NCBI GenBank assembly: GCA_025558095.1
Contig: JAIVFI010000039.1
Span: forward strand, 62,001 to 126,000
Length of the DNA: 64,000 nucleotides
From: Hyaloraphidium curvatum SAG 235-1
Lineage: Eukaryota; Fungi; Monoblepharomycota
Reading direction: 5' to 3'
Shown here: positions 1,507-61,000 of the stretch, piece after piece
Position numbering within the stretch: position 1 is the first letter of the stretch
How the letters are laid out: each line of letters opens with the position of its first letter
Made by a program: the position numbers and the translations under genes
Notes under the pieces: generated by a model
What the model was told of the DNA's origin: nothing
What the model saw: only the letters and a program-made list of their open reading frames with translations
Databases searched by the model: none

Positions 1507-2762
1507 ATGTCGGGCGGCGGCGGAAAGAAAGGCGTGCCGGCCAAGATGCCGGCCGAGGCCCTGGCGCGGTTCCCGAACGCGGAGCCGATCGGCGCGCCCA
1601 CCGCCACGGGCATGGCGCTGAGCGCGGTCGCGAACGCAAAGTACACGAGCGCGTTGGAGCGGCTGTCAACTGCTCTGGTTGCCCTGCGGACGGCAGCGGA
1701 GGCGAAGGTCGCGGCCGGCGAGGATGCCAGGAGCGCCGGAGGCCGCGGATGCACCGTGCGCCCGGCCGCGGACGCCGTGTCGGACCTGGGCAGAAAGGCG
1801 ATCATGGGCGCGCAGCTCCTCGGACCTGGCGCCGCAGCTCCTGGCCGCGCGTCCGTCCGGACCCCTCGTGCAGATCTCTTTCATGGACGCCTTCAGGGAG
1901 GCCTTCCCGCACATCAGGCGAATCGTGCGGATGGCATCGGACAAGGCGCTGCTCAACTACTTCGTCGCTGGGCCTGCCAAGTTGGTCGGGCTGCCCGTCG
2001 CCGACCCCAAAGGGTACTCCATTTTCAGCGTCCTCGACGTGGACCCGCGCTCCCTTCCCCGCATCGCATTCACGAAGATCTTTGGCGCTTACGTCAACAC
2101 GGACGTGTTCCAGATCGCGTGTCGCGTGCCCGTCGACGCGCTCTTCGGATTCCCCAACCACCAGTCCCTGCGCCGCCGCATGTCCAAGGAGCTCGATTTC
2201 TGCGACGTGCTCATCCAGCGAAACGCTGGACTGGATCCTCGCCTACGAGCTCGGCGGCCCGCCGGGGCCCGAGGACGCATGGAGCTTCGCCCCGAACGAG
2301 GCGGACAAGATCGCGCAGATGATCAGCCGCGTGGTGTGGGCCAGCCCCAAGGCGTGGAAGCGGCACATGGAGGCGCCCGACAGGGAGGCCCAGGGTCTTC
2401 CCACTCCCAGCGCTCTGCTGGACGCACTGGAGCGCATGGCAGCGGCGCTCCCTAAGGCGGACCAGGACACGGTCGGCCGGCAGCTCCGCCAATCCCGCAT
2501 CCGCTTCGCCGAGATCCTCGCCCCCGAGCAGGCCAAGGCGATGGAGGCGGCGGCGTCGCCCGCGCTGCGGCGGGACCTGGCGATGCTGCGCAAGGCCGAG
2601 GGGTTGCTGGCCAAGCACGATCAGGTGTTTTGCGACGGGTGCTGGACGCAGGCAAAGGGGCCGCTCAAGATGTGCTCGAGGTGCAAGGTCGCGTGGTACT
2701 GCTCGGTCGAGTGCCAGCGCAACGCTTGGAAGGAGCACAAGGTCGAGTGCGCTGCGGACTAA
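1507..2762 (+). CDS. MYND zinc-finger protein (spliced or frameshifted; exon structure approximate)
   Basis: C-terminus CDGC...CSRCKVAWYCSVECQRNAWKEHKVEC; upstream coding is spread over several frames. Confidence 0.7.
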
Positions 2763-2880
2763 GTTAAAGCAAAGCGATGTATTTGCCATAGGGAATGCAA
2801 ATCGTGCTCCGAGGCGGGGAAGTTGACGGCCGAGCTTGGCGGTCGCCTGCCAAATCCGGGAACCCACGCTCGCGGCTGTA

Positions 2881-3561
2881 ATGCCAATGGAGCTCGCCAA
2901 ACAACATCTTGACGTCGGCCTCATCACGACGGACTGGCCGGCGTCGGAGGCCTTCTGGAAGCACGATGCTGGGCTGAACTACGAGGAGCTCCTTACCATC
3001 CCCGGCACCCCGATCCGGCAGCACCGCTTCGGCTGCAACGGCAGCGTGGTCAAAGTCAACGCCGCGGAGGAGACGCCGGACAACCCGACCATCTACCGTG
3101 GTCTCCGGATCGCGTCAGAAGGCGTCACCGCGCCCACGGTCCTTCCCCACCCCGACGGCGTCGAGGTGGAGCTCGTGCCCCGCGGACACGACGGCATCAC
3201 CGGGATCGAGATCACCATCTCGACCGCCGACCCCGCTCAGGCGCGGCGGTTCTACGTCGGCGCGCTGGGCGGCTCGGACCTTGGCGACGGCCGCTTCCTC
3301 GTGGGGGACACCGTGATCCGGCCCGTGCACGCCCCAGGATTGGCCCCAATGACGGCACGCGATGGCCGTGGGATCCGATACCTCACCGTGCAGGTCCGCA
3401 ACTGCGACGCCGAGCACGCGAGGATCACGGGGATGGGATTCGGTGAGGGTCTGGCCCCGATCACTCTGGGCGAGGTGGCGAGGATCTCGTTCGTCCGCGA
3501 TGCTGACGGGGGATGGGTGGAAGTGTCGCAGAGGGCGTCGTTGGTCGGGAAGCTAAGCTGA
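2881..3561 (+). CDS. VOC/glyoxalase family protein, bacterial type, intronless
   Basis: MELAKQHLDVGL...RQHRF..NGSVVKVN...ARRFYVGALG...GIRYLTVQV...ARISFVRDADGGWVEVSQRASL; two VOC repeats. Confidence 0.75.
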   Translation: MPMELAKQHLDVGLITTDWPASEAFWKHDAGLNYEELLTIPGTPIRQHRFGCNGSVVKVNAAEETPDNPTIYRGLRIASEGVTAPTVLPHPDGVEVELVPRGHDGITGIEITISTADPAQARRFYVGALGGSDLGDGRFLVGDTVIRPVHAPGLAPMTARDGRGIRYLTVQVRNCDAEHARITGMGFGEGLAPITLGEVARISFVRDADGGWVEVSQRASLVGKLS

Positions 3562-3685
3562 TTGGGGCCGGAAGGGGGGCTGCTCTGGTTGGAATTTCAA
3601 TCGACGCGGAGCTGTTCCAAATCTTCGCAAGACTATCGACAATTCTGCTACTTGATTTCGAGATGTCCAGAGATTGCGCCGCGCT

Positions 3686-4708
3686 TCAGGGACCACCCGC
3701 GGCATCCTCCACAGGCCCAGCCGCCGACTTCTTTGCCGGCGGCCTGCAGTCCGGTTTGTGCCGCGGCCAATCCTTCTTCTGGCACTCGCCCGAGCAGTAG
3801 TAAGTCAGGGTGCAACGCGAGCACCGCTGCAGATCCCGCTCCACGTCCTTGGATCCCTTCCCGCACAGGTGGCAGACAGAATACAGCCGCACGGGGAGGT
3901 CCGTCCCGTCGGGCGTGCCCTCCTTCTTCATGTACGCGAGCGCGGTCTTGATGACATCCATCCTGCAGCCGCCACAGTACGGGAACCCGAAGAGGGTGAC
4001 TGAGCGCGGCCAGCCCTCGGGCGCGAAGTACTCAAACACCTGCAGGTCCTTGGCCTTGATGCCGCAGCGCACGCAGTCGGGCTTGCTGGCGAGAAAGTGC
4101 TTCACGGTGAGCTGGCTCCCCTCGGAGCTGCGGACGTGCTGAACGAGATCCTCGGGTTTGTTGATGAGCGGCGCATCGACGAGGATGTTCTTTCGGCGCT
4201 CGTCCAGGTCCCAGCCCGGCGGCGATCCTTTCACCAACGACGTGCAGAGCCTGCTGATGACTTCGAGCGGGTGCTTTCCGTTGACAGGCGCGGGCCTCTT
4301 CGTGCCCGACAGCATATTCTTGGCGTCTCTCGTCAGGTTGGACTTTGCTTTGGCCCTGCACACCTCCGATTCGCAGACCAGCTGCAGCTCGGAGACGGTC
4401 CACCCGCGCGGGTCGGAGATCAGGGGAAGTTCCCCCGGCATGGCCCCCACTGCCGGCTTCCTGCACTGGAAACATTTCCGCGCGGAAGGCCGGAAGGGGC
4501 CTAGGTACTTGTTGACCTGGACGTTGGCGAAATTGAAGCCGTGTCCAGGATCAGGCGCTCCACGGTGGGGTCGCGCATCCGCGACACGGGGACAGGCAGA
4601 GGGCAGGATGTCCAGCGGTCCACGGTCGTGTCGCCGTCGAGGATGTTGATGTACATCCGGCCGGGCTCCGCCTGGGAGAGGTTGCGCATGGGCTCCGCGG
4701 CGGGCATC
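3686..4708 (-). CDS. MYND zinc-finger protein (5' end uncertain; ORF 3686-4441 plus a probable upstream exon)
   Basis: CHLC...CSRCTLTYYCSGECQKKDWPRHKPDC, with an extra CxxC...CxxC upstream. Confidence 0.75.
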   Translation of the reverse strand, partial: DARRGAHAQPLPGGARPDVHQHPRRRHDRGPLDILPSACPRVADARPHRGAPDPGHGFNFANVQVNKYLGPFRPSARKCFQCRKPAVGAMPGELPLISDPRGWTVSELQLVCESEVCRAKAKSNLTRDAKNMLSGTKRPAPVNGKHPLEVISRLCTSLVKGSPPGWDLDERRKNILVDAPLINKPEDLVQHVRSSEGSQLTVKHFLASKPDCVRCGIKAKDLQVFEYFAPEGWPRSVTLFGFPYCGGCRMDVIKTALAYMKKEGTPDGTDLPVRLYSVCHLCGKGSKDVERDLQRCSRCTLTYYCSGECQKKDWPRHKPDCRPPAKKSAAGPVEDAAGGP

Positions 4709-10614: not shown

Positions 10615-12091
10615 TCAGCTACGGTCGGTCTCGCTGTCACTGCTGCCATCACCGGGGCACGGGCCTCCGATCGACTCGGGCAGTGCGAAGGCAGGCGCCT
10701 TGCTGCGCTTAGGCCGGCACACCTTGCCGTGCTCATGCCATGCCTCCCGCTGGCATCTCTCCGAGCAGTAGCGGGCGAGCTTGCAACCGCCGCACCGCAG
10801 GAACTTTGCCCCCTTGCTCCCACGGCTCCCGACCTTTGCTACTCTCCCCACCGCACCGGAACCGCATGCATTATTGTCGCACGTGTCGTCGGCGTGGTAC
10901 TCGTGCGCCCATGTCGCGCAGTCCTCGGCGAAATCCAAGTCCTCCTGCGACGAACCCGGCTCCGCGAGGCCCACGGTAGTGAGAACGTAACGCATCGATA
11001 GCTCCAGGTCGCGGTCGCTCTTTGCCGTCTCCGGCCGGCAGGTTTTGGACCAGGGAGTCTTGCTTCGGATCGAGCACAGGCGCCGGATGGCCTTCTGGAA
11101 CTGCTCGACGGGCAAAGGGATGCCCTGGGACCGAAGATCCAAGCAGTGCTCCCGCCACGGTTTCGGCCTTGCCGCCGCAACGTTTTCCAAGATCAGCGTG
11201 CTGCCGAGCATGTCCTCCACAGCTTCGTCCAACTCGTGATCTGCATCGTCCGATGTCGCCATTGTCTCGAGGTCCGGGAAGATCTCCTCGAAGCTGAGTC
11301 CTTCCAGTTTGAGTGCCTCGACGACACGGACGTTGTAGAGAGCGCTCATCCAGTCAGGCGACAGGGCACCGTAGAGCGACACGGCATCCAGTAGCTCCGG
11401 ATCCTCGGCGATCCGGCGCCGCACGGCCGAGTTGTAGGTCATGATCACCAGGATCGCGATGGCCTGGTTGGCCTCCCGCCCGAAAAGGCCGTCGAACACC
11501 GCGGTGGCCCAGCGGCCCGTCTGCCCGGCGGAGGCGGAGGCGGGCTGCGCTCCCCACGCCGCTCGGCGCTCCGGATCCACGAAGGCCATGATCACCCGAC
11601 GCAGGACCGGTGCGACCTTGGGAAAAACTGTGCTCACCGTCCGGGTGAGAACTTCCCGGGGAAAGCCGTTGGGCGAAATCAGCGGGAGGTGACGTGCCAG
11701 CGGGGAAGAACGGCGCCACGCGGGCCCAGTCCGAGAGCTTCGCCTCGAGGGCGAGAGTGTCGACTTGTTTGTAGATGATGTGAAGACAAGAGCCGCCTTT
11801 GCAGTGCCCGACGGGGTCGAAGTTGTGAGTGTGAAGGAACTCTGCCTCGTACTGCCCGTATTCGGCAGCCGTGCTTCCCCCGGGTGCGAGCCGCTCTGGA
11901 GGCCTCTCCGTCCCGTCCAGAAACTCAAAGTAGCGCGGGGCGAACACGTCGCAGACGTGTCGGCAGACGTCGGCCGAGAACGCGCGAATGTCAAACTCAG
12001 ACCAGCGGGCCGGGCGCACCAGGGCCGACCCGGCGGCCGCTGCTCCGCTCTCTGCAGATGAGCCGGCGACCGTTGCGTGCTTTTTGGGCAT
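10615..12091 (-). CDS. MYND zinc-finger protein (spliced)
   Basis: CDNNAC...CGGCKLARYCSERCQREAWHEHGKVC; probable start MPKKHATV at 12091. Confidence 0.7.
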
Positions 12092-19862: not shown

Positions 19863-21476
19863 ATGCTCTCGCTCATACTGGAGCGTTACCCGCTCATTTT
19901 CTTCCTCTTCTCCGCCGCGGCTGCGTACTTCCTGGCAAAATGGACCGCGGACATCGCGTTTCCGCCCGCCGAACCGCCGGCGGAGGACGCGCCGTACGGC
20001 GGATCCGGCGCCGCAGGGCAACAGGCTGCGGCGCGGGGCGGTGGCGAAAATGGGCGGGAAGCGGGCCGGACGCGTTCGGCGGGGCATGCCTTCGAAACGG
20101 ACTCGGAAGGGGATCTCGGGTTCCGCGGTCCCGCGGGTTCCGGAGGCGAGAGTTCGGACGAGGACGAGGAGGACGGAGATGATACGGACGACGACGAAGA
20201 GGACGAGGACGATACTGACGACGACGAACTCTCCGAGGACTCCGACGGCGACTGGATCTACGACCCCTACGAGGTCTCGGACGGCGAGGACTCGGATTCC
20301 GACGCCATCCCCTCCTTCTCCCCCTGGGCAGGCCTGCAGTGGCGGCACCTCATCCGCGTCACCACGCGCTCTTTTGACGCGTTCGACGCCTGGCTCGAAC
20401 CCCTGCTGTCCCTCGAAGATCCCGACGCCGCGAGCGGGACCAAGAGCACGCGGCTCGCCCTGCGCGAGCTCAAGGAGGCGTGCGAGACCATCGAAGCGAT
20501 GATCAACCCGCTCGAAGACGACGATAGGACGGAGGAGCTGCTGTCGTTGTATTTCCCCGGGGGAGCGGTGCCGGATTTCTGGGCCAGGAACGAGGAGCAG
20601 GTGCTGGACCCTGGGCACCTGACCAAGCCCCTCCTCGCGCTCTTTGCGCGGTGCTTCCCGTGCCTGCGCCGGATCGTCGTCACTTTTTCCAGCCGCCGGG
20701 AGATGCCCCCCGCGTGGCGGAGGACCACGGAACCCAACGGCTCCCTCCCGCACCGTATCGGCAGGCTCCGCGCCGTGGACACGGTCGCGGACGCCATGGT
20801 CAACTCCTTTGCCTGCGCTCACATGGCGCTGTTCCGCCTCTCCGTCGTGCACGCCGTCGCGGGGAGGATGGCATCCGACACCGTTTTCCTGGACGCGCTG
20901 GCGCTTGCAGCGGGCGACGAGATCGCGGGCCTGCTGCGCGACACCTTCCACGAACGGTCGTCCCCGCCCGATGAGGCCCGGATAAGGGCGTGCGTGAAGG
21001 GCCTCTTCAGCCTGCGGCTCCTCACGTTCGTCGCCAGTGTCAGCCCGGGGGCCTGGACGCGCCACTGCGCCGCAACGTACGGGGACGGGAACGGGAGGGG
21101 TGCGCCGCTCCGGTACGCGCTCGAGAAGGCGGCGGAGCTGTTGCTGGCGCTGACGCCGCACGTGGAGCGTCTGGATGACACGGCGCTTTTTGAATCCTAC
21201 GAGATGGTCGCGGAGCTCGACCTGCCCGTGCTGTTGCGCGTCGCGGTTTCCGGGCGGGACGGGGCACAGTTGGACGGGGTGCTGCGGCAACGCCACCGCG
21301 AGGACAGTTCCAAGCCCCCGGACATCTGCGACCACTGCCGTCGGGTGCCCGGGCCGGGCGCGCACCTGCTCAGGTGCGGGAGGTGCAAGGTGGCGAGGTA
21401 CTGCGCGGCGGGGTGCCAGAGGGCGGCGTGGGAGGCTGGGCACAGGGGGCGGTGTGTGGTTGCCAGGCCGGCGTGA
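19863..21476 (+). CDS. MYND zinc-finger protein with an N-terminal TM segment and an acidic tract
   Basis: CDHC...CGRCKVARYCAAGCQRAAWEAGHRGRC at the C-terminus. Confidence 0.8.
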   Translation: MLSLILERYPLIFFLFSAAAAYFLAKWTADIAFPPAEPPAEDAPYGGSGAAGQQAAARGGGENGREAGRTRSAGHAFETDSEGDLGFRGPAGSGGESSDEDEEDGDDTDDDEEDEDDTDDDELSEDSDGDWIYDPYEVSDGEDSDSDAIPSFSPWAGLQWRHLIRVTTRSFDAFDAWLEPLLSLEDPDAASGTKSTRLALRELKEACETIEAMINPLEDDDRTEELLSLYFPGGAVPDFWARNEEQVLDPGHLTKPLLALFARCFPCLRRIVVTFSSRREMPPAWRRTTEPNGSLPHRIGRLRAVDTVADAMVNSFACAHMALFRLSVVHAVAGRMASDTVFLDALALAAGDEIAGLLRDTFHERSSPPDEARIRACVKGLFSLRLLTFVASVSPGAWTRHCAATYGDGNGRGAPLRYALEKAAELLLALTPHVERLDDTALFESYEMVAELDLPVLLRVAVSGRDGAQLDGVLRQRHREDSSKPPDICDHCRRVPGPGAHLLRCGRCKVARYCAAGCQRAAWEAGHRGRCVVARPA

Positions 21477-21486
21477 ACCATCGATG

Positions 21487-21850
21487 CTATATGTGCTTCG
21501 GTAGTTTTCGATCGTTTGGAGCAAGTTGGCGTTGAAAGGAGGTCGATCGTCTTTCCTCTCTCGTGTTAATGCGTGACGGATCTAATTTGAGGGCGGTGTA
21601 GATGGCTGCGTTGCCCTTCATGCACGCCACAGAAAGGCGCTGGCGTGCGCGGCAGGTGAAGAGTGCACACAAGCCATCCTCATCGTTATCCTCGGCGAAC
21701 TGGACGTGGGCGATCTTCTTGATGAGACGCTCTTCATCCTCGTTGAATGCCCCGTAGCTCTCCATGATGACCGGGACGAGGCGTGTGGGTCCGACCAGAG
21801 CCCGCTCCCACCACCGCGCGTCGTTTGCTTGTGTCACCTTCCGTCGCGTA
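21487..21850 (-). mobile_element. 5'-truncated relic of an RLE-type (CRE/R2-like) non-LTR retrotransposon, C-terminal endonuclease tail
   Basis: LVPVIMESYGAF...LIKKIA...RQRLSVACMKGNAA matches the F.P..vE..G....QRlS.a.qrGNA tail of RLE-clade ORFs; lower GC than the flanking genes. Confidence 0.65.
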
Positions 21851-21870
21851 CCCGAATTCAGACACGCGAG

Positions 21871-23256
21871 ATGCCGACCGCCTGGCAGCGGACTCCCTCT
21901 CTCATTAGGAGGGACCACCCTGCTTTTGCCTGGTACCTCCGCGTGGCCTTGCGCCGCTCGGCGCCCTCGGCCGACACGACCTCCCTTGGGGTTTTGCTCG
22001 TCGAAATCCTGCGGTACGTCGCCGAACGCCCCGAGGACCTTGCCCGCGTGGACCGCACCTGCCGCACGCTGTCGTACCACGTCGCCGACTCGTCTCTTTG
22101 GCGCGGGCGGGAGTTCGTGGCGCGGCACCCGCCCGGCATGCACGACCTCGGCAAGCTGCGGGGCCACTACGTGTTCATGCGGCAGCTCGCCGAACGGATC
22201 GAGGATCGCTGCATCGTCGAGGAGTCGCCGGGCATCCTGCGCGCCCGGGTCTCGGGGCCGGACCCGCGGCGCACGCCGGGCTTCGACGAGGACGAGGCAA
22301 CGGAGGGCGTCGTCGGGGCCTCGTTCGACGTGGTGCGGTCGCTGCTCACGTACCGCGACATCTGGCTGGAGAGCCTGGAGCTGGATCTGGAGCGCAGCAC
22401 GTGCTTCACGGACCTGATGTCGGCCGTCGGCGACGATCCCGAAAAGTGCTTCGACATACGCAACCTCAGAGTGCGTGCTTACGACTTGCCCGGGTTCTAT
22501 CCCCGGAATCCGGTTCGCGACGAGGAGGCCACATCGATCCGCAAGCTATTGCAGCGGCTGTCCCGCCTGGACCTCGACTCGGTGCGAACGCTCGAGCTCC
22601 GCGACGACTACGCCCACGACCTCGACCTGGAGCCGACCTGGTCGGACATGTCCGATGATGATCGCGAACATCATGCCCGCGAACACCCGGACGTCGAGGA
22701 TCACCGCTCGGACCTGGACCTCGGACCGCGGTCCCTGGCCTTCACCGTCGACACCCGGCTCCCGGCGGTGCGGGAGCTCCGCCTCCTCGGCGGCCGGGAA
22801 TACCCCCAGCTCCCGCTGTGGATAATCGAGCCGGGTCCCCCCGCCCGCGTTTTCGCCAACGTCGAGGTCCTCCACCTCGGACCCGCGTGGCGCATCCAAG
22901 GGTGCCATTTGGCCGCGGGGATCCCGACGGTCGTCCGGTCGCTGGCGGAGCTGCGCGAGCTGCACGTCGTGCTGCCGGAGGACTCGGCGTCCGCCTTCAG
23001 GGAGACAGCCTGGGACGTGCTGAGGCCCGTGTGCTGCATCCTGGCGCCGCGGCTCGAGCTGGTTGCCGTGGACGCTCATCCATCCGAGGCCGAACTCGGG
23101 GACGGCGAGTGGCTCGCCCGACGGATCCACGGTGTGCTGGGGGAACGCAGGCGGAACGGATTGGTGGTCCCGGAACGGCTAAGCAGGTTCCGTTACGCCC
23201 GGCAAGAGTTCGCGGTGCGACCCTTCTTCGAGAGACCTCAATCTTTTGCACAATAG
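21871..23256 (+). CDS. F-box-like protein with LRR-like segments
   Basis: LLVEILRYV...LARVDRTCRTL...DSSLWR, plus LxxLxL repeats (VRTLEL, VRELRL, VEVLHL, LRELHV). Confidence 0.6.
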   Translation: MPTAWQRTPSLIRRDHPAFAWYLRVALRRSAPSADTTSLGVLLVEILRYVAERPEDLARVDRTCRTLSYHVADSSLWRGREFVARHPPGMHDLGKLRGHYVFMRQLAERIEDRCIVEESPGILRARVSGPDPRRTPGFDEDEATEGVVGASFDVVRSLLTYRDIWLESLELDLERSTCFTDLMSAVGDDPEKCFDIRNLRVRAYDLPGFYPRNPVRDEEATSIRKLLQRLSRLDLDSVRTLELRDDYAHDLDLEPTWSDMSDDDREHHAREHPDVEDHRSDLDLGPRSLAFTVDTRLPAVRELRLLGGREYPQLPLWIIEPGPPARVFANVEVLHLGPAWRIQGCHLAAGIPTVVRSLAELRELHVVLPEDSASAFRETAWDVLRPVCCILAPRLELVAVDAHPSEAELGDGEWLARRIHGVLGERRRNGLVVPERLSRFRYARQEFAVRPFFERPQSFAQ

Positions 23257-52025: not shown

Positions 52026-55000
52026 TCAACCCACCTGTGGTTTAGCGCACAGCTCCTCCCACATCCTCCTTCCCGCCACCTCCCTCGCGAACGCGTGCAA
52101 CTCCGCATCCAGAGCGTTCATCGCCGCCAGTCTTTCCACGACGGGGTGACCGGCGGGGTAGGCCGCGGAGAAGGACGAGTTCTCGAGGGTGCCGGCCCGG
52201 TGCTTGTTCACCTGGCACGTACCGCGTCAGCGACGCCGTTCGGACGCGGCAAGATCTGGTCACGCACGTCGAATTCTTTCCACCCGAGCTTGGAAGCCAG
52301 CTGCCCCGCCGTCGCCGCGAAACTCGCCGGGTCGTCCGCCACGAGGACGACGGAAAAGTACCCCTCCAGCGTCCGCTTGGCCCTGTCCAGATGGTGCCGG
52401 GTGCAGGGGCCGAGTCCGCATCCGCCAAACACGCGGACATGGAAGTCATTTAGCCACAAGTGCGCGTCGGGTAGGGATTGCGCCTTGGCCATCTCCTCCA
52501 GCGTCAAGTTGCCCCAGTCCCCGCCCACCGCCCCGTGCTGGCCGGAGGTTAGCGAATAGACTGGGAGGGGGTAGTGGGAGGGGGAGTGGACTGTGCGGGG
52601 CGCTCGCAAGCTCGCCGTAGGGCCCCGCAGACTAGGGGACCTTGGCTACACGGTCTGTGCTTGCGTCCTTGTCTCACTGCCTTGCCGACCCCTGCTTTGC
52701 CGGTCCCCTCACCTACTTGCTAAGCAATGTGCTTAGCAACTTGCTTACCTTTTCTAAAACCAACTATTCTAGTCGTTTTCATAGTCGTTTTCTTGGCTTG
52801 TATAGTCGATTTTATACCTCATTTTGGCTCTGATAGTCGATTAGTCGATTTTGAAAAAAAACTTAACCCGTTTTCAAGTTTCACCTAGGTCCTACCCTAT
52901 ACAACAACTTAGGCCACCTTTTCCTCCAAAATCGACTAATTAACTATTTGCTTTGTTTCATGCTTCAACTTCTAGATCTCTTACCATTTTCCTTCTAGCT
53001 TCTTTTTCTCAAAATCGACTAGAACCCAACTTGGTCCTAGTCGTTTTCTAATTCACAAAGAATTTCATGACAGTGATGACAACTTTTTTGAAAAGTGGTT
53101 TGGCGAAGCCATATTTTGTGTCTTCACCACTCTTTTTCCCCACCAGTCTTACCCCACCACTGAGTACCCCACCTGTCTTACCCCACCACTGAGTACCCCA
53201 CCACCTCTTCCCCCACCACCTCTTACCCCGCTCCCCCATCGCAACTTCGTTGCTACCACGTGCTTTGAACGAAGTTCATTTGTGGTTTGGCGTAGCCATT
53301 TCTCCCGCCCCCGCTCCCTCGCGTACCAAAAGGAGAGAAATCCCAGCAAGCCTGGTACATCTTTGAAAATCATATTTGGAACAAAGTAGACAGCAAGTCA
53401 GTGAGCCTACAAATCAAGTCTGAGGCATACACAAGATTATTTCATACGGCGGAGAGAGTATACAGAGGATTGCAAATTCAGACGGACCAAGAGCGCAAGC
53501 AGCAGGAACAAAAGCTAAAGCAGATAAGAAATGTGATCAAGTCATTGCAATCAGCAGGAACAAAACGATCAATAACAGAGGAGTATGCGACATGTTGTTT
53601 GAAGAGGGACTTTTTGAGTCTTTTGAACAAGAAGAAGAATTTGCTTCCCTTTAAAAACGGAGTCTATGAACTGGAGACATCAAACTTCAGGGCAGGGCAA
53701 CCAGAGGACTACATGACCAAGTCGGTAAGATTTGACTATGATCCATTGAAAATGAGAGACAGTGCCATGCTAGCCGAATTGATGAAATTCTTGGAGTCAG
53801 TCTTTCCGGATGCAAGTCTAAGAGCCTGGTGCATGCGATACTTTGGAAGCTTTTTGGCGGGATATACACGTGATCAAATTTTTGTGTTTGGTCACGGGTC
53901 AGGTTCGAATGGGAAAGGCATTTTGCTCAAACTTCTGGAGCATGTGCTAGGGGACTTTGTTGCGAAGATTGAAGCATCTTTTCTGAGTGAAACGACAAAA
54001 GCAGATTCAGCAACACCAACACTGACATCGATGGTAGGAGCACGTCTAGTGCTTATATCAGAGACAGTGGATGGTGCAAAGCTGAATGAGCAGAGATTCA
54101 AAGCTCTTTGTGGAGAGGATACACTTACTTACAGAGAACTATTTAGCGAGATGTCATCATTTGTGCCGGATTTCAAGCTGTTCATGGTGTGCAATTCACT
54201 ACCTATTTTTAATGGCTCGGACTGGGCAATGCGTCGGCGTATAAAGGTGATACCATTTATGTCAACATTCAAGAAACTGGACGAGAATCCAGACCCAACA
54301 AAAAATGAGTATCCATTGGATTCAACTCTGGGAGAGAGAGCACCAGAATGGAAATATGCGATGATGCATTTGCTTCTGGAGGGATACAAAGAGTATAAGG
54401 AGCACGGATTAGGACCAGAACCAGCAACATTGAAGGCAGCAACGCAACTATATGCGAGGACAAACAACATTTATGAAGAGATTCGTGACAATTATTTGGA
54501 AAAAGATGCATCAAGTGGGGTGACAACGGAATGGTTTGTGAATCAAGTCAACAAAAAGTGGAACGATTTCTATGGGGAGTCAATGAAAAAACCAGGGAAA
54601 CAGAAAATGTATGAGAGTATTGATGTGGCGCTGTTGAACGAGAAGCAAAAGACGGAGAAGAGAAGGTTTGGGAATCCGCAAAGATACGGATGGAAAGGGT
54701 GGAGGAGGGTGAAAGAGGCCGAAACCACGTGGATGGACATATAGCGTACAGCTTCGCTGAATCACATAAAAACAGGTTTTTGCAAAGCAGATGTGTGAAA
54801 GATGTTTCTGCACGAAGTGCTCTCTGAAATAGCAAAACACTGTGACATAGATACCCGATGCAAGTTGGCTGAGGCACTTCTGCTTGAAAAGAATGCATTT
54901 ATTGTGAAATTATCGCCCGGAAACCAAGGAAGTATTACAACAGATGCTTTTCTTAAGTCGCATCAAGCAGCAATAACTGCAAAGATGAAGAAGCGAGGGC

Positions 55001-58000
55001 AACTCAAAATACATATCGAATGCAAGTTTCATGTTGGCATACTATTCAAAGGTAAAAGGGTGGGGATGTGGTATCAAGCAAATCGGATGAAGTGCAGCGT
55101 ATCGTGGACAAATGACTTTGGAGAGTTTGATCAGATGAGATTTGCAGCAATCAACAAGGAAGACCATGATCTTACTAGTTGGAGGTACTTTGTTGAAGGT
55201 GACATGTTATGTGAATACGGGAGTGTGAACCAAACAAGGCAGCAACTAAAAGAGTTTGAAGAGCAAATTGAATCAGTGGAGTCATATATGTATGGGGAAT
55301 AATTGTCTATTCAGCCAAGTATTTTGCTTCGAGATCAGGATAGCGATTTCCAAATCTATCATAAACACGGTATTCAAACTTGAATCCAGTAGCTAAAGCA
55401 GCATTCTTTTTCGCGATATTGCGTGCTCTTTCTATCTCGTATGTGTACTGAGATTTCACTTCAATGAAAGATGATCAGCAAAAGCAATGTAGAAATCAGG
55501 GATGTAGTCTTTCCAACGATTGTTGTCAGCAGGATCTTGATACCTTACTCTGGGAACAGCTTCGTCTCCGTGAACTATGCCAATGTCTCTGAACTCTCCG
55601 GAATCCACGAAAAATTTCTCAAATCCTTGCATGCCAAAATATTCATCACCGAATTTGGAAACATAATCATATTTGCGGAAAGGGGGAGAGACAGGTTCGT
55701 CAATCGACAAGGTTTCAATGTTTGGTGCAAAAAAGTGGTCGAGAAACGACTGTGGGAGAATGTATTCGGTAGTAGTCATGTATATAAGAGACAAAACATC
55801 GAAAAACATGCTCAGAATACGAAGAAAGTTCACACAAAACGAGTTTTTTACCAACACAAACTTAATTGAAGCCAAGTGATTTGAATTAAGTATGAAGCAA
55901 CTTGCATAAAAAGGCCAAGGTTGCAATGGTAAATTAATGATTCTTAAAGCACGTGGTCTGGGCCAATGTTTGCCATGGAAGAACAAACTTACAAGGAAGA
56001 GACCGGATTGCCAGCATACACAAGCCGTACTTATCTTGTTTCGTTTGGACACATTAAAGATGACAAGAGTTTGAGCCGAGCAATAGTATTAGCAAAGCAT
56101 AAGGAGAAGGGCATCAACAGTTTGGAACTACTGGAAAAAGAGACGCAGGAGCTTCATGAGAAACTAGGGATAAAATCACCGCAATGGGAAAAAAGAGACA
56201 AATGGTTTCCCTGGTCAGAGCTGAGGGAACTGGCAGAAGAAGCAGAGAGCAAGTGTTGGAAGGTCCTGGGCTTAAGAATTGCGTTCTATGCAACGAGGGA
56301 TGATGAGTCATATTATCAATACTCACTCTTAAACGCAAAAGTTCGAAATGCCAAGTTGCAAGTAGACATTTGCCCAAGAGAGGAGGATCAGGGACACTAT
56401 AAAGGCCATTTTAGTTTGATACTGGACTTTCACCGCTACAAAGGGATAAAGAGAGAAGTCCGTGGATATGTCAAGGGCAAAGTTCCGTCAAACAAAGTAA
56501 TTCAAGGTAAAGATCGCACGAAATTGGTGTTGGAGGAATTGACACGTGTTTTTCAGAGGGTGTACTAATATCAGACTTGAGGAAACAAGAGAGGGAAGCA
56601 CGCATGAAACAAAAGGATTTTGTTGAAAAGCTTCGGGAATAGCACAAATGAACTTCGTTCAAACAAAGCAACTTCGTTGCAAAAATGACTTCGTCATATG
56701 ACTTCGTCAAACCACATGTGACTTGGCGAAGCCCTATAAGGGAGGGGGGGCGGGAGGCATAACCAACAGGGCTTCGCCCAAATGACTTCGTCAAGCCACG
56801 TGACTTCACCGAAGGTGAAATGGCGAAGCCATGTGAGAAATGACTTCGTCAAATCACGTGGTTGCACGAAGTGCTATGAGGGAGCGGGGTAAGGGAGCGG
56901 GGTAAGGGAGCGGGGTAAGGGGGAGAAGACAGCACTTGGTGAGGCAGAAGGCCTGAACACCTGAACACATTTGGCTTCGCCAAAGCACGTGATTGGACGA
57001 AGTCCTGTTGGTATGGACGAAGTGGATATGGGCAGAAGGCCGACAGAAAAGAGTCAGAGAAAGTGGATGGTATTTTGTGAGAAAGCACAGGGAAACAAAG
57101 CTATATATATATATAGTCAGAGATGTCAGAAAAGTCAGAATAAGAAAAAAATAATTATTATAATAAAAGAGAGAGGACTATGTAGTAAGAGAGTAGTAAA
57201 AGAGATACATGTCTTGAAAAGTTCTGACATTGCTGACATTTCTGACAAAGTAAGGTAGCTAAGCAAGATGCTAAGCAGTTTGCTAAGCAAGTAAGTAGAA
57301 CAAAGAAGGGGTAGGTGAAGCTCGTGAAGCCGTGCCCGGGAGGGACCCGGAGGGAGGCCCAAGGGGGATGGGCCGGAGCGAGGGACGAGCGCAGGACCCC
57401 TCTCCCCCTCCTGCCAACTCAGGCATATCGTATCTTGAGCAAAACCCCGACGCTGAGGTGCATATTCGTCGGAACCGGACTCAATACGCATCGGTATTGC
57501 CCCGTGCATTTGCCGATGAACAAATGTCACGATATCTTGCACCCGCAGCGCGGAGAGTTTTGGTGGATATTGAGGCATTGCTTAGACAACAAGTTGAGTT
57601 TGATCCCGCCGGGTGGGAAGCGCAAGATGTGGATTTGGGGGTGGAGGAAGAAGGAGGGGATGAAGATGATTAAAGCACCTTCGGTATATGACTTCGTCAA
57701 ACCACAGGTGACTTGGCGAAGCAATATAGCACTTCGTGCAACCACGTGATTTTGCGAAGCAATATAGCACTTCGTGCAACCACGTGATTTTGCGAAGCAA
57801 TTACTCAAATGATTGGATCAATCGATCAGGCAGAAACTTGCATAAGTCTTTTACAAGGGCTGTACACCTTAACCACTCGGTCAACCTGTCGAGAGAGCAA
57901 ATTGAAAGGGTGGGACACGTGGTGCCGGGACATTGCGGTGGGGCATCGCGCTCGGACACAGCACTTCAGCCTTATACGGCAAAGCCAAGTGAATGCCGTT

Positions 58001-61000
58001 CACAGCACGTAATTTGGCGAAGCCATATATTGCATCGCAAAACCACGTGCTTTAGCGAAGCTATATGAGCGTAAGCCCGCTTAGAAGAACCACGACGCGT
58101 CGTTCACATAGGCACCAATGTATTCGTTGCGAAACGTAAACGTAATGGAGCACCAACCTCACTCACACGATAAGGAACCGGGTAGTAGACATGAAAGATC
58201 AGCACAGATGCGACTGCCAGATGAGCTGTGGTTGCAAATCATGAATAGTCTTGGGTTCGATGACAGAAAAACATTGGGAAAATGGTTGGGGTGGACGACA
58301 GTTCCTCGATTCAGAATCCAAGGCACTAATACACAAATAAAACGAGCAACACAGGAAATGGAAAAGGAAAGCAAAGGTAAGAATTTTAAAGTGAATGTTC
58401 TAATTGACCACAAAATACAAATCATTCGAGAGGTGCAAGAGCATTGCATGAAGACAAGAGTATGGTTTCTGGGAAGCAATATAAGGTTTGAGCTTTATCC
58501 TGAGTTGCCAGATGGTATATGGGTAGTTTGGGATGGGGACAGAGTATTGTTAAAGTATGAGTATTCAAATGTAAGTTGGAAAGATTTAGAACAAGTGCGT
58601 AAAAGGTTGAACTCAGTGTGTATGTAGTGAACATAAGTGAGTTTATTTTTTCCAAGCACAGCGGGAAGTCCGGGCAGGGAACGGGTCCGAGCAGAGTGCA
58701 AGAGAGCGAACGTCTGGGCGCTCCGCGGGAGGCAGGTTGCGGGGCGATGCGGAACCGATAGAGCTTCCGAGTCCGGCAAAACTCTGTCCCGTCTCAGAAG
58801 AACGCGTTTCGTGACCCCATTGCGCAACCACTGGGGGCTCGCTCTTGTTACCGCATCGCGTTCAGACGCCACCGCGCTTGAACGGGCACGTGGCGCTCCC
58901 ACGTCGCGCTCCGTGTTCCGAACGCACGGCGCGGCTTTCCCGTTTTCGCGCTTTGCGGTCTCGCGAACTTGTTCCCGCCGCAGAGCGGCGGCTCCCCCGG
59001 GCTCCAACGCCACCGCCTTTCCCCCAAACCACACGTGCTGGAACGCGCTACCTCGCACGGGACGCTGCGCTCCAGCCTCTGGCTTGCTCGGGGCTCTGAA
59101 CCCACAACGCGCCTTTCCCGCGCGCGCGCCGTGATACTGTGCTGCGCGGACCTTCGCTCCTCGGACGCCGCGCTCGGACCGGCCGAGGCTTCAATTGACC
59201 TTGAAAATGGGTGATGTTCGTTTGTTCTTCGCTTTTTTTCCTGTTCCCTATACCTTAATTACTATGAGTTCAGGTTGTGACACTCCGTCAATACCTTCTT
59301 CAAGTTCGCAACGTCGATCCTTCAGTGGAGCGTCGCCTACGAAAGAAGGTGTGAGCCTTGAGGATTTTGTGGCAAACTTTCTAAAGACTCCGGATGAACT
59401 CATTTATCCCCGACTCGTTTCAAAGCTTCGATACCGATGGTCTCAAGCATGCATTACGTATCTTGAGCAAAACCCCGACGCTGAGGTGCATATTCGCCGG
59501 AACCAGACTCAGTACACATCGGTTTTGCCTCGTGATTTTGCACATGAAAAAATGTCACCCTTTCTTGCTACCGCTGCCGATAGGGTTGTTGCAGATATTA
59601 GAGCATTGCTTAGACAAGAACTTGATCAAGTGGCTGCTCATAATGTGGATTTGGATTTGGGGCCAGAACAAGAAGGGACGGATCCAGATGATGATGAACC
59701 TTAGGCATAAGCAATATATGACTTCGTCAAGTCACGTAGTTGAAACGAAGTTTCATTGGCGAAGCCATGTGAGAAATGACTTCGTCAAATCACGTGGTTG
59801 CACGAAGTGCTATGAGGGAGCGGGGTAAGAGGTGGTGGGGGAAGAGGTGGTGGGGTACTCAGTGGTGGGGTAAGACAGGTGGGGTACTCAGTGGTGGGGT
59901 AAGACTGGTGGGGAAAAAGAGTGGTGAAGACACAAAATATGGCTTCGCCAAACCACTTTTCAAAAAAGTTGTCATCACTGTCATGAAATTCTTTGTGAAT
60001 TAGAAAACGACTAGGACCAAGTTGGGTTCTAGTCGATTTTGAGAAAAAGAAGCTAGAAGGAAAATGGTAAGAGATCTAGAAGTTGAAGCATGAAACAAAG
60101 CAAATAGTTAATTAGTCGATTTTGGAGGAAAAGGTGGCCTAAGTTGTTGTATAGGGTAGGACCTAGGTGAAACTTGAAAACGGGTTAAGTTTTTTTTCAA
60201 AATCGACTAATCGACTATCAGAGCCAAAATGAGGTATAAAATCGACTATACAAGCCAAGAAAACGACTATGAAAACGACTAGAATAGTTGGTTTTAGAAA
60301 AGGTAAGCAAGTTGCTAAGCACATTGCTTAGCAAGTAGGTGAGGGGACCGGCAAAGCAGGGGTCGGCAAGGCAGTGAGACAAGGACGCAAGCACAGACCG
60401 TGTAGCCAAGGTCCCCTAGTCTGCGGGGCCCTACGGCGAGCTTGCGAGCGCCCCGCACAGTCCACTCCCCCTCCCACTACCCCCTCCCATAGACAGGGTG
60501 TCCACAACGGGGGAGACGAACCTTCCAGTGGGAGAGTATCCGATCCAGAGGGTGCCGCACAACCGCGACAAACACGGCGTCCCCCGGGGACGGCAGCGGC
60601 GGGAGCTCCCACGGCTCCAGCGCCAGAAAGTCCACCCCCTTTTGCGCGGGGTCGAGAAACTCCGCGAGTCTCTGGGCGTCGGTGATGGGCTCCATTGGCC
60701 GCCAGAGGCAGTTGTCCGTTTGGTTTGTCCGGTACCCATTGGCCGCGGCCAAGGTGCAGACCGTGCTTCCCCCCGCCTTGTGGACGTGCGCAAAGACCAC
60801 ACGGTTGGACCGTAGCTTGGCGCGTCGTTCGGCGACCGCCCGCCCGGCCGCCAGCGCCGGCTCGTCGAACCCTGTCGGCCGCGGGCGAACCAGCCCGCCC
60901 GGCGGCCACGGCAGCGCCGGCGCGCACGGCTCCAGCGATGTCGGCAGCAGAAAGAGCGCCAGCCCCGTGAGCGCCAGCAGCAGCCGGCCCACGTTCGGGG

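Follow-up and report, generated by a model that had tools for sequence, protein, structure and literature searches.

A mobile element inserted in the window (the whole 64,000-nt stretch of Hyaloraphidium curvatum DNA analysed here, to which all positions refer) carries many copies of a one-stranded unit of ~20 nt, 5'-GTG-NYT-[4-5-bp stem, GAA loop]-3', and we consider the half-sites on each strand to be candidate signals for priming by the primase-helicase that belongs to the element's own family, with a probability of about one half.

Results

The element (Table 1) contains 30 C-GAA-G/C-TTC-G hairpins, each with a stem of 4 bp or more, between 52562 and 60489, and beside them one GTA-loop variant, one GAT-loop variant and two with 3-bp stems, in agreement with the more than 30 mini-hairpins reported in the initial annotation, every quoted example of which was found in place. 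The enrichment over shuffles and host DNA was also borne out: 30 hairpins stand against 0.2-2.1 in shuffled sequence (300 shuffles each; dinucleotide mean 0.24, maximum 2; 3-let mean 0.29; 5-let mean 1.05; 6-let mean 2.13, maximum 7), and CGAAG/CTTCG pentamers bear a stem in 30 of 42 cases in the element versus 5 of 175 in 56 kb of flanking host DNA. The density was 3.8 hairpins per kb in the element and 0.015 per kb across 80 related-helicase loci. The loop is GNA throughout or one base away from GNA. Just 12 distinct 11-mers make up the 30 hairpins, and three of these account for 18, so the hairpins are not independent of one another. An Rfam search of the sequence gave no match. ViennaRNA returned identical energies for both strands of each hairpin, implying that the GNA bonus is not modelled and that the program is of no use as a stability test here; the longer cross-dyad fold that it preferred for some dyads finds no support in the pairing counts given below.

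Table 1. Positions of the element, its genes and its hairpin units in the window
Feature	Position	Strand	Remarks
Host intron	52538-60521	-	51 nt long if the element is taken out; the gene is sulfotransferase-like
Left target-site duplication	52557-52561	+	TAGAC (5 bp)
Mobile element	52562-60489		7,928 bp; ends TG...CA; mosaic; no primase domain
Left TIR	52562-53243	+	682 bp perfect; diverged match on to about 53281
Eight TAGTCG iteron-like repeats	52770-53043		both orientations; AT-rich DNA, left TIR
Solo half-site GTG-GTT-[TGGC GAA GCCA]-TAT	53095-53114	+	inside left TIR
Dyad	53241-53278		two 5-bp stems around CACGTG
Solo half-site, GTA loop	53282-53301	+	
D5-like SF3 helicase frame	53296-54744	+	matches C-terminal half only of ~950-aa Prim-Pol-helicases
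Solo half-site	54746-54765	-	directly past helicase stop codon
ORF, 166 aa	54802-55302	+	no family match
Hairpin without GTG	54810-54820	+	sole one of 31 within an ORF
ORF, 200 aa	55966-56568	+	no family match, no homologue found
Three tandem hairpins and a dyad	56649-56735		dyad centre CACATGTG
Two dyads and two secondary hairpins	56769-56875		paralogue of 59718-59811
Second, internal terminus	56770-57416	+	diverged homologue of right end
Dyad	56970-57005		position equivalent to right-TIR half-site
Partial paralogue	57420-57673	+	81% over 178 nt to 3' part of the 59207-59704 gene
Three dyads	57677-57801		one centred on CACAGGTG; two arose by a 38-bp tandem duplication
Half-site (GTA) and a dyad	58009-58064		dyad has one GAT-loop arm
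ORF, 169 aa	58118-58627	+	weak F-box-like stretch (E 0.11)
Small gene	59207-59704	+	run X1 contigs show two GT-AG joints
Two dyads and one secondary hairpin	59718-59811		inner edge of right TIR
Right TIR	59808-60489	-	diverged match from about 59774
Mirror solo half-site	59937-59956	-	in right TIR
Mirror iteron-like array	60008-60281		right TIR
Right target-site duplication	60490-60494	+	TAGAC (5 bp)

We counted 23 perfect half-sites; of the 31 C-GNA-G hairpins whose stems reach 4 bp or more, 8 have no GTG three bases from the stem, two of these eight having GTA. Among 27 distinct contexts, the loop lies 7 nt from the end of GTG in 16 and 8 nt in three, all of the latter with 5-bp stems; the CACGTG-to-CGAAG distance can shift by a base, but that to the stem base is constant. 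Because the spacer between GTG and the stem stays at three bases as the stem grows, it is probably the folded form that is recognised.

A site search blind to pairing (GT[GA]-N3-N3/4-CGNAG) found 25 of 30 sites fully paired in the element versus 1 of 32 in the host. Nine distinct pairs of 3-base arms gave 25 paired positions out of 27, where permutation gave a mean of 12.1, and the variable positions pair locally in 34 of 36 cases versus 14 of 36 across the dyad. The claim that the stems differ yet always pair has exceptions: two dyad arms (loops 56728 and 57718) carry one mismatch. Within one pair of paralogous clusters 11 of 100 bases differ, six of which form three compensated pairs, and no pair is broken. 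The compensated changes are confined to one 25-nt patch and could stem from a single conversion or template-switch event. On the sequence evidence, local pairing, the GNA-type loop and the fixed spacer support the view that DNA structure is under selection or otherwise maintained, as had been proposed, the interpretation as a whole being supported in part.

Two half-sites placed back to back form a dyad, and 11 dyads were counted where about ten had been reported around CACGTG or a variant; the centre is CACGTG in eight and CACGTA, CACATGTG and CACAGGTG in one each. A combination with a host bHLH E-box had also been suggested. Unlike an E-box or G-box, the unit does not have CANNTG in every copy, and since four solo half-sites have GTG but no CANNTG, the E-box is dispensable for it. 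Outside the hairpin clusters CACGTG was nevertheless found 7 times versus 1.2 expected (none of 500 shuffles reached 7), and given this enrichment it may have a separate role in double-stranded DNA.

Most of the hairpin clusters adjoin iteron-like repeats, at both ends of the element and at the internal terminus, which has its own CTGAC/GTCAG array (about 57053-57247). The hairpin cluster is nearly identical at two termini that are otherwise diverged and bear different iteron-like repeats. The host intron was deduced from its donor, CTAAC branch, CAG acceptor and reading frame. Searches with Pfam and PHROGs gave no match to a capsid or packaging ATPase among the element frames and detected no rve integrase or tyrosine recombinase; several small ORFs have no family match, and no frame other than the helicase exceeds 231 aa. 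The single-sequence structure model of the 200-aa ORF was unusable (pLDDT 39.8); its Atlas neighbours are eukaryotic proteins, which serve as a lead only. For the 59207 gene, the last exon had no Atlas match above 0.81. Contigs of run X1 end at 59704, right before a cluster, and we gave this no weight because contigs do not show transcript ends.

In a quick tree of 41 rows the helicase forms a group with P0031, P0179 and P0001 (SH-aLRT 91); of these, P0031 and P0179 carry Prim-Pol (PF09250). Primase types are swapped in the wider clade (P0040 and P0044 with AEP_C962R). The predicted N-terminal domain of P0031 has its best match in the pRN1 primase-polymerase (Z 14.6, rmsd 3.1, 170 aligned); its Z against NrS-1 is 8.4. 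No helix-bundle (PriCT) domain of P0031 was found in Pfam, only a weak UL52-like match (E 2.7e-4). As this copy has no primase domain, the partner enzyme is deduced from relatives about 45% identical. Contigs of the close relatives are mostly 4-8 kb. The single related small-element locus found (44% identity, 2.6 kb) carries iteron-like repeats and no half-site; 79 giant-virus-type loci at 26-33% identity served as control only, and two further protein-based locus searches gave nothing. A second copy of the element's DNA did not turn up among the sequences searched. Motif scans of viral contigs (29, 7, 6 and 0 loci) yielded 42 loci with at most three such hairpins each, which we rejected as chance, and the full dyad pattern was found in none of the prokaryotic genome contigs.

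Discussion

The priming reading builds on what was observed, namely the unit, its fixed spacing, the back-to-back layout on CAC/GTG, the iteron-like arrays at three termini and the kinship of the helicase. A full-length Prim-Pol-helicase, acting in trans for this copy, would bind the iteron-like repeats and unwind the DNA, and the exposed strand would then fold into GAA mini-hairpins resistant to single-strand-binding protein; a GAAA-loop mini-hairpin is reported to bind SSB poorly (PMC13037366, section 4.1). The primase would dock at the hairpin and begin its primer at GTG or just 5' of GTG, so that a CACGTG dyad would give two primers back to back, pointing apart, and bidirectional synthesis from one site. 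The high copy number of the units may reflect duplication together with a mosaic of several element ends. Among the functions listed in the initial annotation (priming, protection of single-stranded DNA, transcription start or termination), priming is the best fit, given the Prim-Pol-helicase family and the iteron-like repeats nearby.

A close parallel in geometry, taken from published text, is ssiA/ssiB of the IncQ plasmid RSF1010, used by the archaeo-eukaryotic-type primase RepB': in ssiA a hairpin spanning nt 7-27 is followed, after a gap of 3 nt, by GTG at nt 31-33; ssiA and ssiB lie close to the origin, on opposite strands (PMC8567376), and the ssiA loop is CCGAAGG (PMC13037366). Like the element, ssiA combines a C-GAA-G loop with GTG 3 nt from the stem base. 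The two differ in that ssiA is a 40-nt unit with a 21-nt hairpin, GTG 3' of the hairpin and one copy per strand, whereas the element, in a eukaryotic host, has hairpins of 11-13 nt, GTG 5' of the hairpin and 23 perfect copies. The primase of pRN1 primes only on GTG-containing templates, starting 5' of GTG, and primer synthesis requires its helix-bundle domain (PMC2965215). Since P0031 has no helix-bundle match, this specificity is not simply transferable, although pRN1 ORF904 shares with our system the Prim-Pol fold (predicted, in the nearest full-length relative), the SF3 helicase and the GTG triplet. The pRN1 origin is likewise a structured site directly downstream of the replication gene, but it is a single 100-nt stem-loop whose GTG is dispensable in vivo, its mutation not stopping replication (PMC4234260).

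Transpovirons are elements of about 7 kb with TIRs, no capsid and an SF1 helicase. Our element resembles them in size (7.9 kb), TIRs and absence of a detected capsid, but its helicase is D5-like SF3, and it does not show the alternative set of pPolB with a DDE transposase either (bioRxiv 10.64898/2026.10.13.758929). Mobility of capsid-less AEP-SF3 elements has been proposed in the same work. Polinton-like viruses and related elements often carry primase-SF3 helicase modules, with TIRs proposed as origins (PMC11296320) and the module lying beside the TIR (PMC11296320; PMC12220804). Long TIRs (682 bp here) and a 5-bp target duplication are shared with those viruses, unlike the capsid, packaging ATPase and integrase, which were not detected. 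The relevant parts of PMC11296320 give no sequence signal for such origins, and no GTG-mini-hairpin signal is described in the portions covered of the literature on Polinton-like viruses, transpovirons and AEP-SF3 elements. The word 'hairpin' is absent from three papers on Polinton-like viruses and occurs twice in PMC11296320, where the passage covered is on poxvirus telomeres.

In a broader form, which we put forward tentatively and at somewhat less than even odds, ~7-kb capsid-less TIR-bounded replicons of microbial eukaryotes would replicate like a bacterial strand-displacement plasmid, a fused Prim-Pol-helicase reading a folded signal of GTG and GAA hairpin, and CACGTG pairs firing abutting opposite primers. 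If the priming reading is true, the element has a structure-coded primase signal in a eukaryotic genome that is readable from sequence alone, and is a natural case of the d(GCGAAGC)-type mini-hairpin at work in an element of a eukaryote; the covered part of a review gives phage and plasmid examples (PMC13037366). The locus offers a precise 20-nt candidate signal with natural compensated variants.

The units could instead be duplex binding sites (CACGTG with CGAAG) of an element or host protein, their stems being by-products of fold-back repair or template switching nucleated at GAA loops, by which the arms stay complementary, and the unit having spread by duplication. Such sites would not by themselves account for a distance that is constant to the stem base and variable between CACGTG and CGAAG, for the sharp limit in stem length (21 of 4 bp, 6 of 5 bp, 3 of 6 bp), for solo half-sites without CANNTG, or for coding-region pentamers that are mostly stemless. 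We regard this explanation as unlikely, with these points in its favour: the distinct stems are just 12 and many come from plain duplication, the compensated changes are grouped in one patch, CACGTG is enriched outside the clusters, and Pol theta fold-back synthesis gives short inverted insertions (PMC11292364).

Two ORFs have hairpins 49 and 61 nt upstream, and the loop-to-start distance would resemble that of the phage N4 early promoters, which have the same C-G-closed GNA loop and stem positions that vary freely if paired (PMC4496689). That the units are such promoters, recognised by an RNA polymerase or a factor on the template strand, or mark transcription starts in another way, is improbable: N4 requires its virion RNA polymerase, and none was seen among the scanned frames of this incomplete copy (Pfam, PHROGs); the units, unlike N4's, stand in opposed pairs with fixed GTG and in both orientations while the mapped ORFs are all on the + strand; and the 59207 gene, spliced at GT-AG like host Pol II transcripts, has 1,150 hairpin-free nt upstream. 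A role in protecting or compacting displaced single strands, or in recombination, excision or packaging by a helper element or virus, has a slim chance, as neither the fixed GTG spacing nor the back-to-back geometry is required for protection, even though GNA mini-hairpins are exonuclease-resistant (PMC13037366), the clusters are subterminal and the integrase, none having been detected, would have to come from elsewhere. The slimmest chance falls to termination or 3'-end signals in RNA or on the displaced strand. The RNA-level form fits poorly because loops are on both strands (15 on +, 16 on -) while all seven mapped ORFs are on +; only three places have the RNA C(UUCG)G form, and the GAAA-loop mini-hairpin melts at 39 °C as RNA versus 76.5 °C as DNA (PMC13037366). 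Clustering after stop codons, another claim of the initial annotation, was confirmed for four of the seven plus-strand ORFs (cluster starts 9, 86, 20 and 19 nt past the stop), the remaining three having no cluster within 785 nt. In favour of such signals, 30 of 31 hairpins lie outside ORFs, which occupy 55% of the element; against them, two of the clusters past stop codons are subterminal regions paralogous to each other.

Mini-hairpins with a GTG at fixed distance

The hairpin set is genuine and greatly exceeds chance. All mini-hairpins quoted in the initial annotation were present where it had placed them. The element contains 30 hairpins that combine a C-GAA-G loop (C-TTC-G on the opposite strand) with a stem of 4 bp or longer, 21 with stems of 4 bp, six of 5 bp and three of 6 bp. 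They comprise 12 distinct 11-mers, several clusters being duplicates. Shuffles keeping 2-, 3-, 5- or 6-mers (300 per setting) gave means of 0.24, 0.29, 1.05 and 2.13, with a maximum of 7. Of the element's 42 CGAAG/CTTCG pentamers, 30 had such a stem, versus 5 of 175 in flanking DNA. No other combination of loop and closing pair recurred beyond a few times.

Oriented by the GAA loop, the consensus is 5'-GTG-NYT-[stem 4-5 bp, C-GAA-G]-TWT-3', a half-site found in perfect form 23 times in the element versus once in the host flank. Sites chosen without a pairing criterion paired fully in 25 of 30 cases in the element versus 1 of 32 in the host. Across 27 distinct contexts, 16 have the end of GTG 7 nt ahead of the loop and three have it 8 nt ahead; every 8-nt case has a 5-bp stem, so the fixed distance is that from GTG to the stem base, a reference point that exists only in the folded strand. 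Eleven dyads consist of half-sites paired back to back on CAC/GTG (two with two additional central bases), and four solo half-sites (three distinct) have the GTG and lack the E-box. Among 31 C-GNA-G hairpins, eight have no correctly spaced GTG; two of these carry GTA and most others lie directly behind another hairpin.

Local pairing holds at 34 of the 36 variable positions in six distinct 4-bp/4-bp dyads; pairing across the dyad holds at 14 of the 36. Of 100 bases compared between two paralogous clusters, 11 differ, all of them within one 25-nt patch; they include three compensated pairs, and no pair is broken. Because no second DNA copy was found, the covariation is confined to paralogues of one locus.

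A mosaic element with a D5-like helicase

The element is a mosaic. The 7,928-bp block (interior 39-50% GC versus 62-75% in the surrounding host DNA) has perfect 682-bp TIRs, TG...CA ends and a TAGAC duplication, and lies in what appears to be an intron, 51 nt long, of a gene resembling sulfotransferases (Pfam E 0.005), which makes the host a eukaryote. An internal stretch aligns over its whole length with the right terminus, differs in its iteron-like repeats (CTGAC vs TAGTCG) and adjoins a partial second copy of the element's last gene. Most hairpin clusters adjoin AT-rich iteron-like arrays.

The main frame matches proteins of 930-1,050 aa, in their C-terminal half only. Its named matches come from the chytrid Quaeritorhiza, a hint that the host may be a zoosporic fungus. 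Prim-Pol PF09250 occurs in six of the ten full-length matches examined, whose contigs span 3.9-7.3 kb (5.9-13 kb for further members). A quick tree of 41 helicase stretches places the element's helicase inside a 25-member clade (SH-aLRT 100), separate from the AEP_C962R/PriCT-2 proteins checked and nearest to three related proteins, P0031, P0179 and P0001 (SH-aLRT 91). In the P0031 structure model (pLDDT 76.5), the helicase half matches ASFV PrimPol and poxvirus D5; for residues 1-193 the best match is the pRN1 primase-polymerase (Z 14.6). Scanning of the element frames turned up no RNA polymerase, capsid, ATPase or integrase.

Features of the element, its flank and a related locus (window positions unless stated)
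Feature	Position	Strand	Observation
Element	52562-60489		
D5-like SF3 helicase	53296-54744		Main frame
Hairpin-free CACGTG	53867, 54726, 55950, 56543, 57916, 58887, 59032		Three in coding sequence; some with dyad-like spacers, may be decayed units
Two adjacent frames	55307-55609	-	Overlap plus-strand ORF; weak DUF7487 match (E 0.045); presumably resemble a broken PD-(D/E)XK-type nuclease
Internal stretch	56770-57416		Diverged second element end; nested or recombinant structure
Gene	59207-59704		Two GT-AG joints in contigs of sequencing run X1
G-rich strand-biased repeats (GGTGGGG, GCGGGGTAA)	53138-53231, 56879-56921, 59815-59913		Between hairpin clusters and iteron-like arrays; possible G-quadruplex formers
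GCTAAGCA repeats	52719-52737, 57258-57289, 60314-60332		Common to all three termini, once in host flank; possible binding sites for integrase or end-binding protein
TIR part	60304-60382		Run X1 contig: 4 substitutions, 2 one-base gaps, then other sequence; suggests a related terminus in that run
Host flank genes	1749-4441, 10615-11589, 19863-23256		Within 22 kb: zf-MYND (4), F-box-like (1)
L037 (related small element)	L037 2040-2582		Related helicase fragment; beyond it, repeats rich in CCCAC and an AT-rich core flanked by inverted CGGAGATA arrays; layout of the element's ends, minus mini-hairpins

Half-sites as candidate priming signals

The best reading, to which we give a probability of about 0.5, is that the half-sites act as single-strand priming signals. 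The DNA would be unwound, the mini-hairpins would fold in vivo, a primase would recognise the half-sites, and a free form of the element would be replicated; if priming begins 5' of GTG, a CACGTG dyad would give two abutting, divergent primers. Synthesis by the pRN1 primase depends on GTG and begins 5' of the triplet (PMC2965215), and the RSF1010 priming signal ssiA has a GTG 3 nt from its hairpin, a partner signal on the opposite strand (PMC8567376) and the hairpin loop CCGAAGG (PMC13037366). The last source describes weak SSB binding by mini-hairpins of this class and their presence at the phage G4 priming site. One half-site lies 3' of the helicase stop, an arrangement like that of pRN1, whose origin lies 3' of its replication gene (PMC4234260).

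Several findings count against priming. This copy is without the primase half, primase types are exchanged within the helicase clade, and the helix-bundle domain had no match in P0031. The GTG stands 5' of the hairpin here and 3' of it in ssiA, and GTG is dispensable in the pRN1 origin (PMC4234260). The 2.6 kb of L037 (44% identity), the sole small-element relative obtained, contain iteron-like repeats and no half-site. CACGTG is also enriched outside the hairpins (7 vs 1.2 expected). Fold-back repair, and not selection, may have kept the stems compensated (PMC11292364). The units might instead be duplex binding sites with stems maintained by template switching; set beside a spacing measured from a folded stem, we find this unlikely.

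Hairpin promoters of the N4 type (PMC4496689) seem improbable, and we give little credence to a role in protection, recombination or packaging. Least probable of all is a terminator or 3'-end signal. The initial annotation had placed clusters just after stop codons; a cluster follows only four of the seven ORFs, and this counts against a reading at the RNA level, as do the loops on both strands (15 on plus, 16 on minus).

Relation to known systems

The half-site is a novel form of a known kind of signal, with a putative function and a little-described carrier. The candidate unit would act like an ssi signal, yet it falls outside the RSF1010 class, from which it differs in order, length and copy number. 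Our literature search, with most subscription journals outside its scope, found no description of a GTG-mini-hairpin signal in a eukaryotic element. By gene content the element is neither a Polinton-like virus (PLV) nor a transpoviron, the latter being recognised by size and an SF1 helicase. It is similar to the capsid-less AEP-SF3 modules put forward in a preprint (bioRxiv 10.64898/2026.10.13.758929).

The related proteins P0031-P0045 and P0178-P0182, Prim-Pol/zinc-finger/D5 helicases of ~950 aa encoded on contigs of mostly 4-8 kb, make up an unnamed clade, likely a family of small replicons, and their primase domains vary within the clade.
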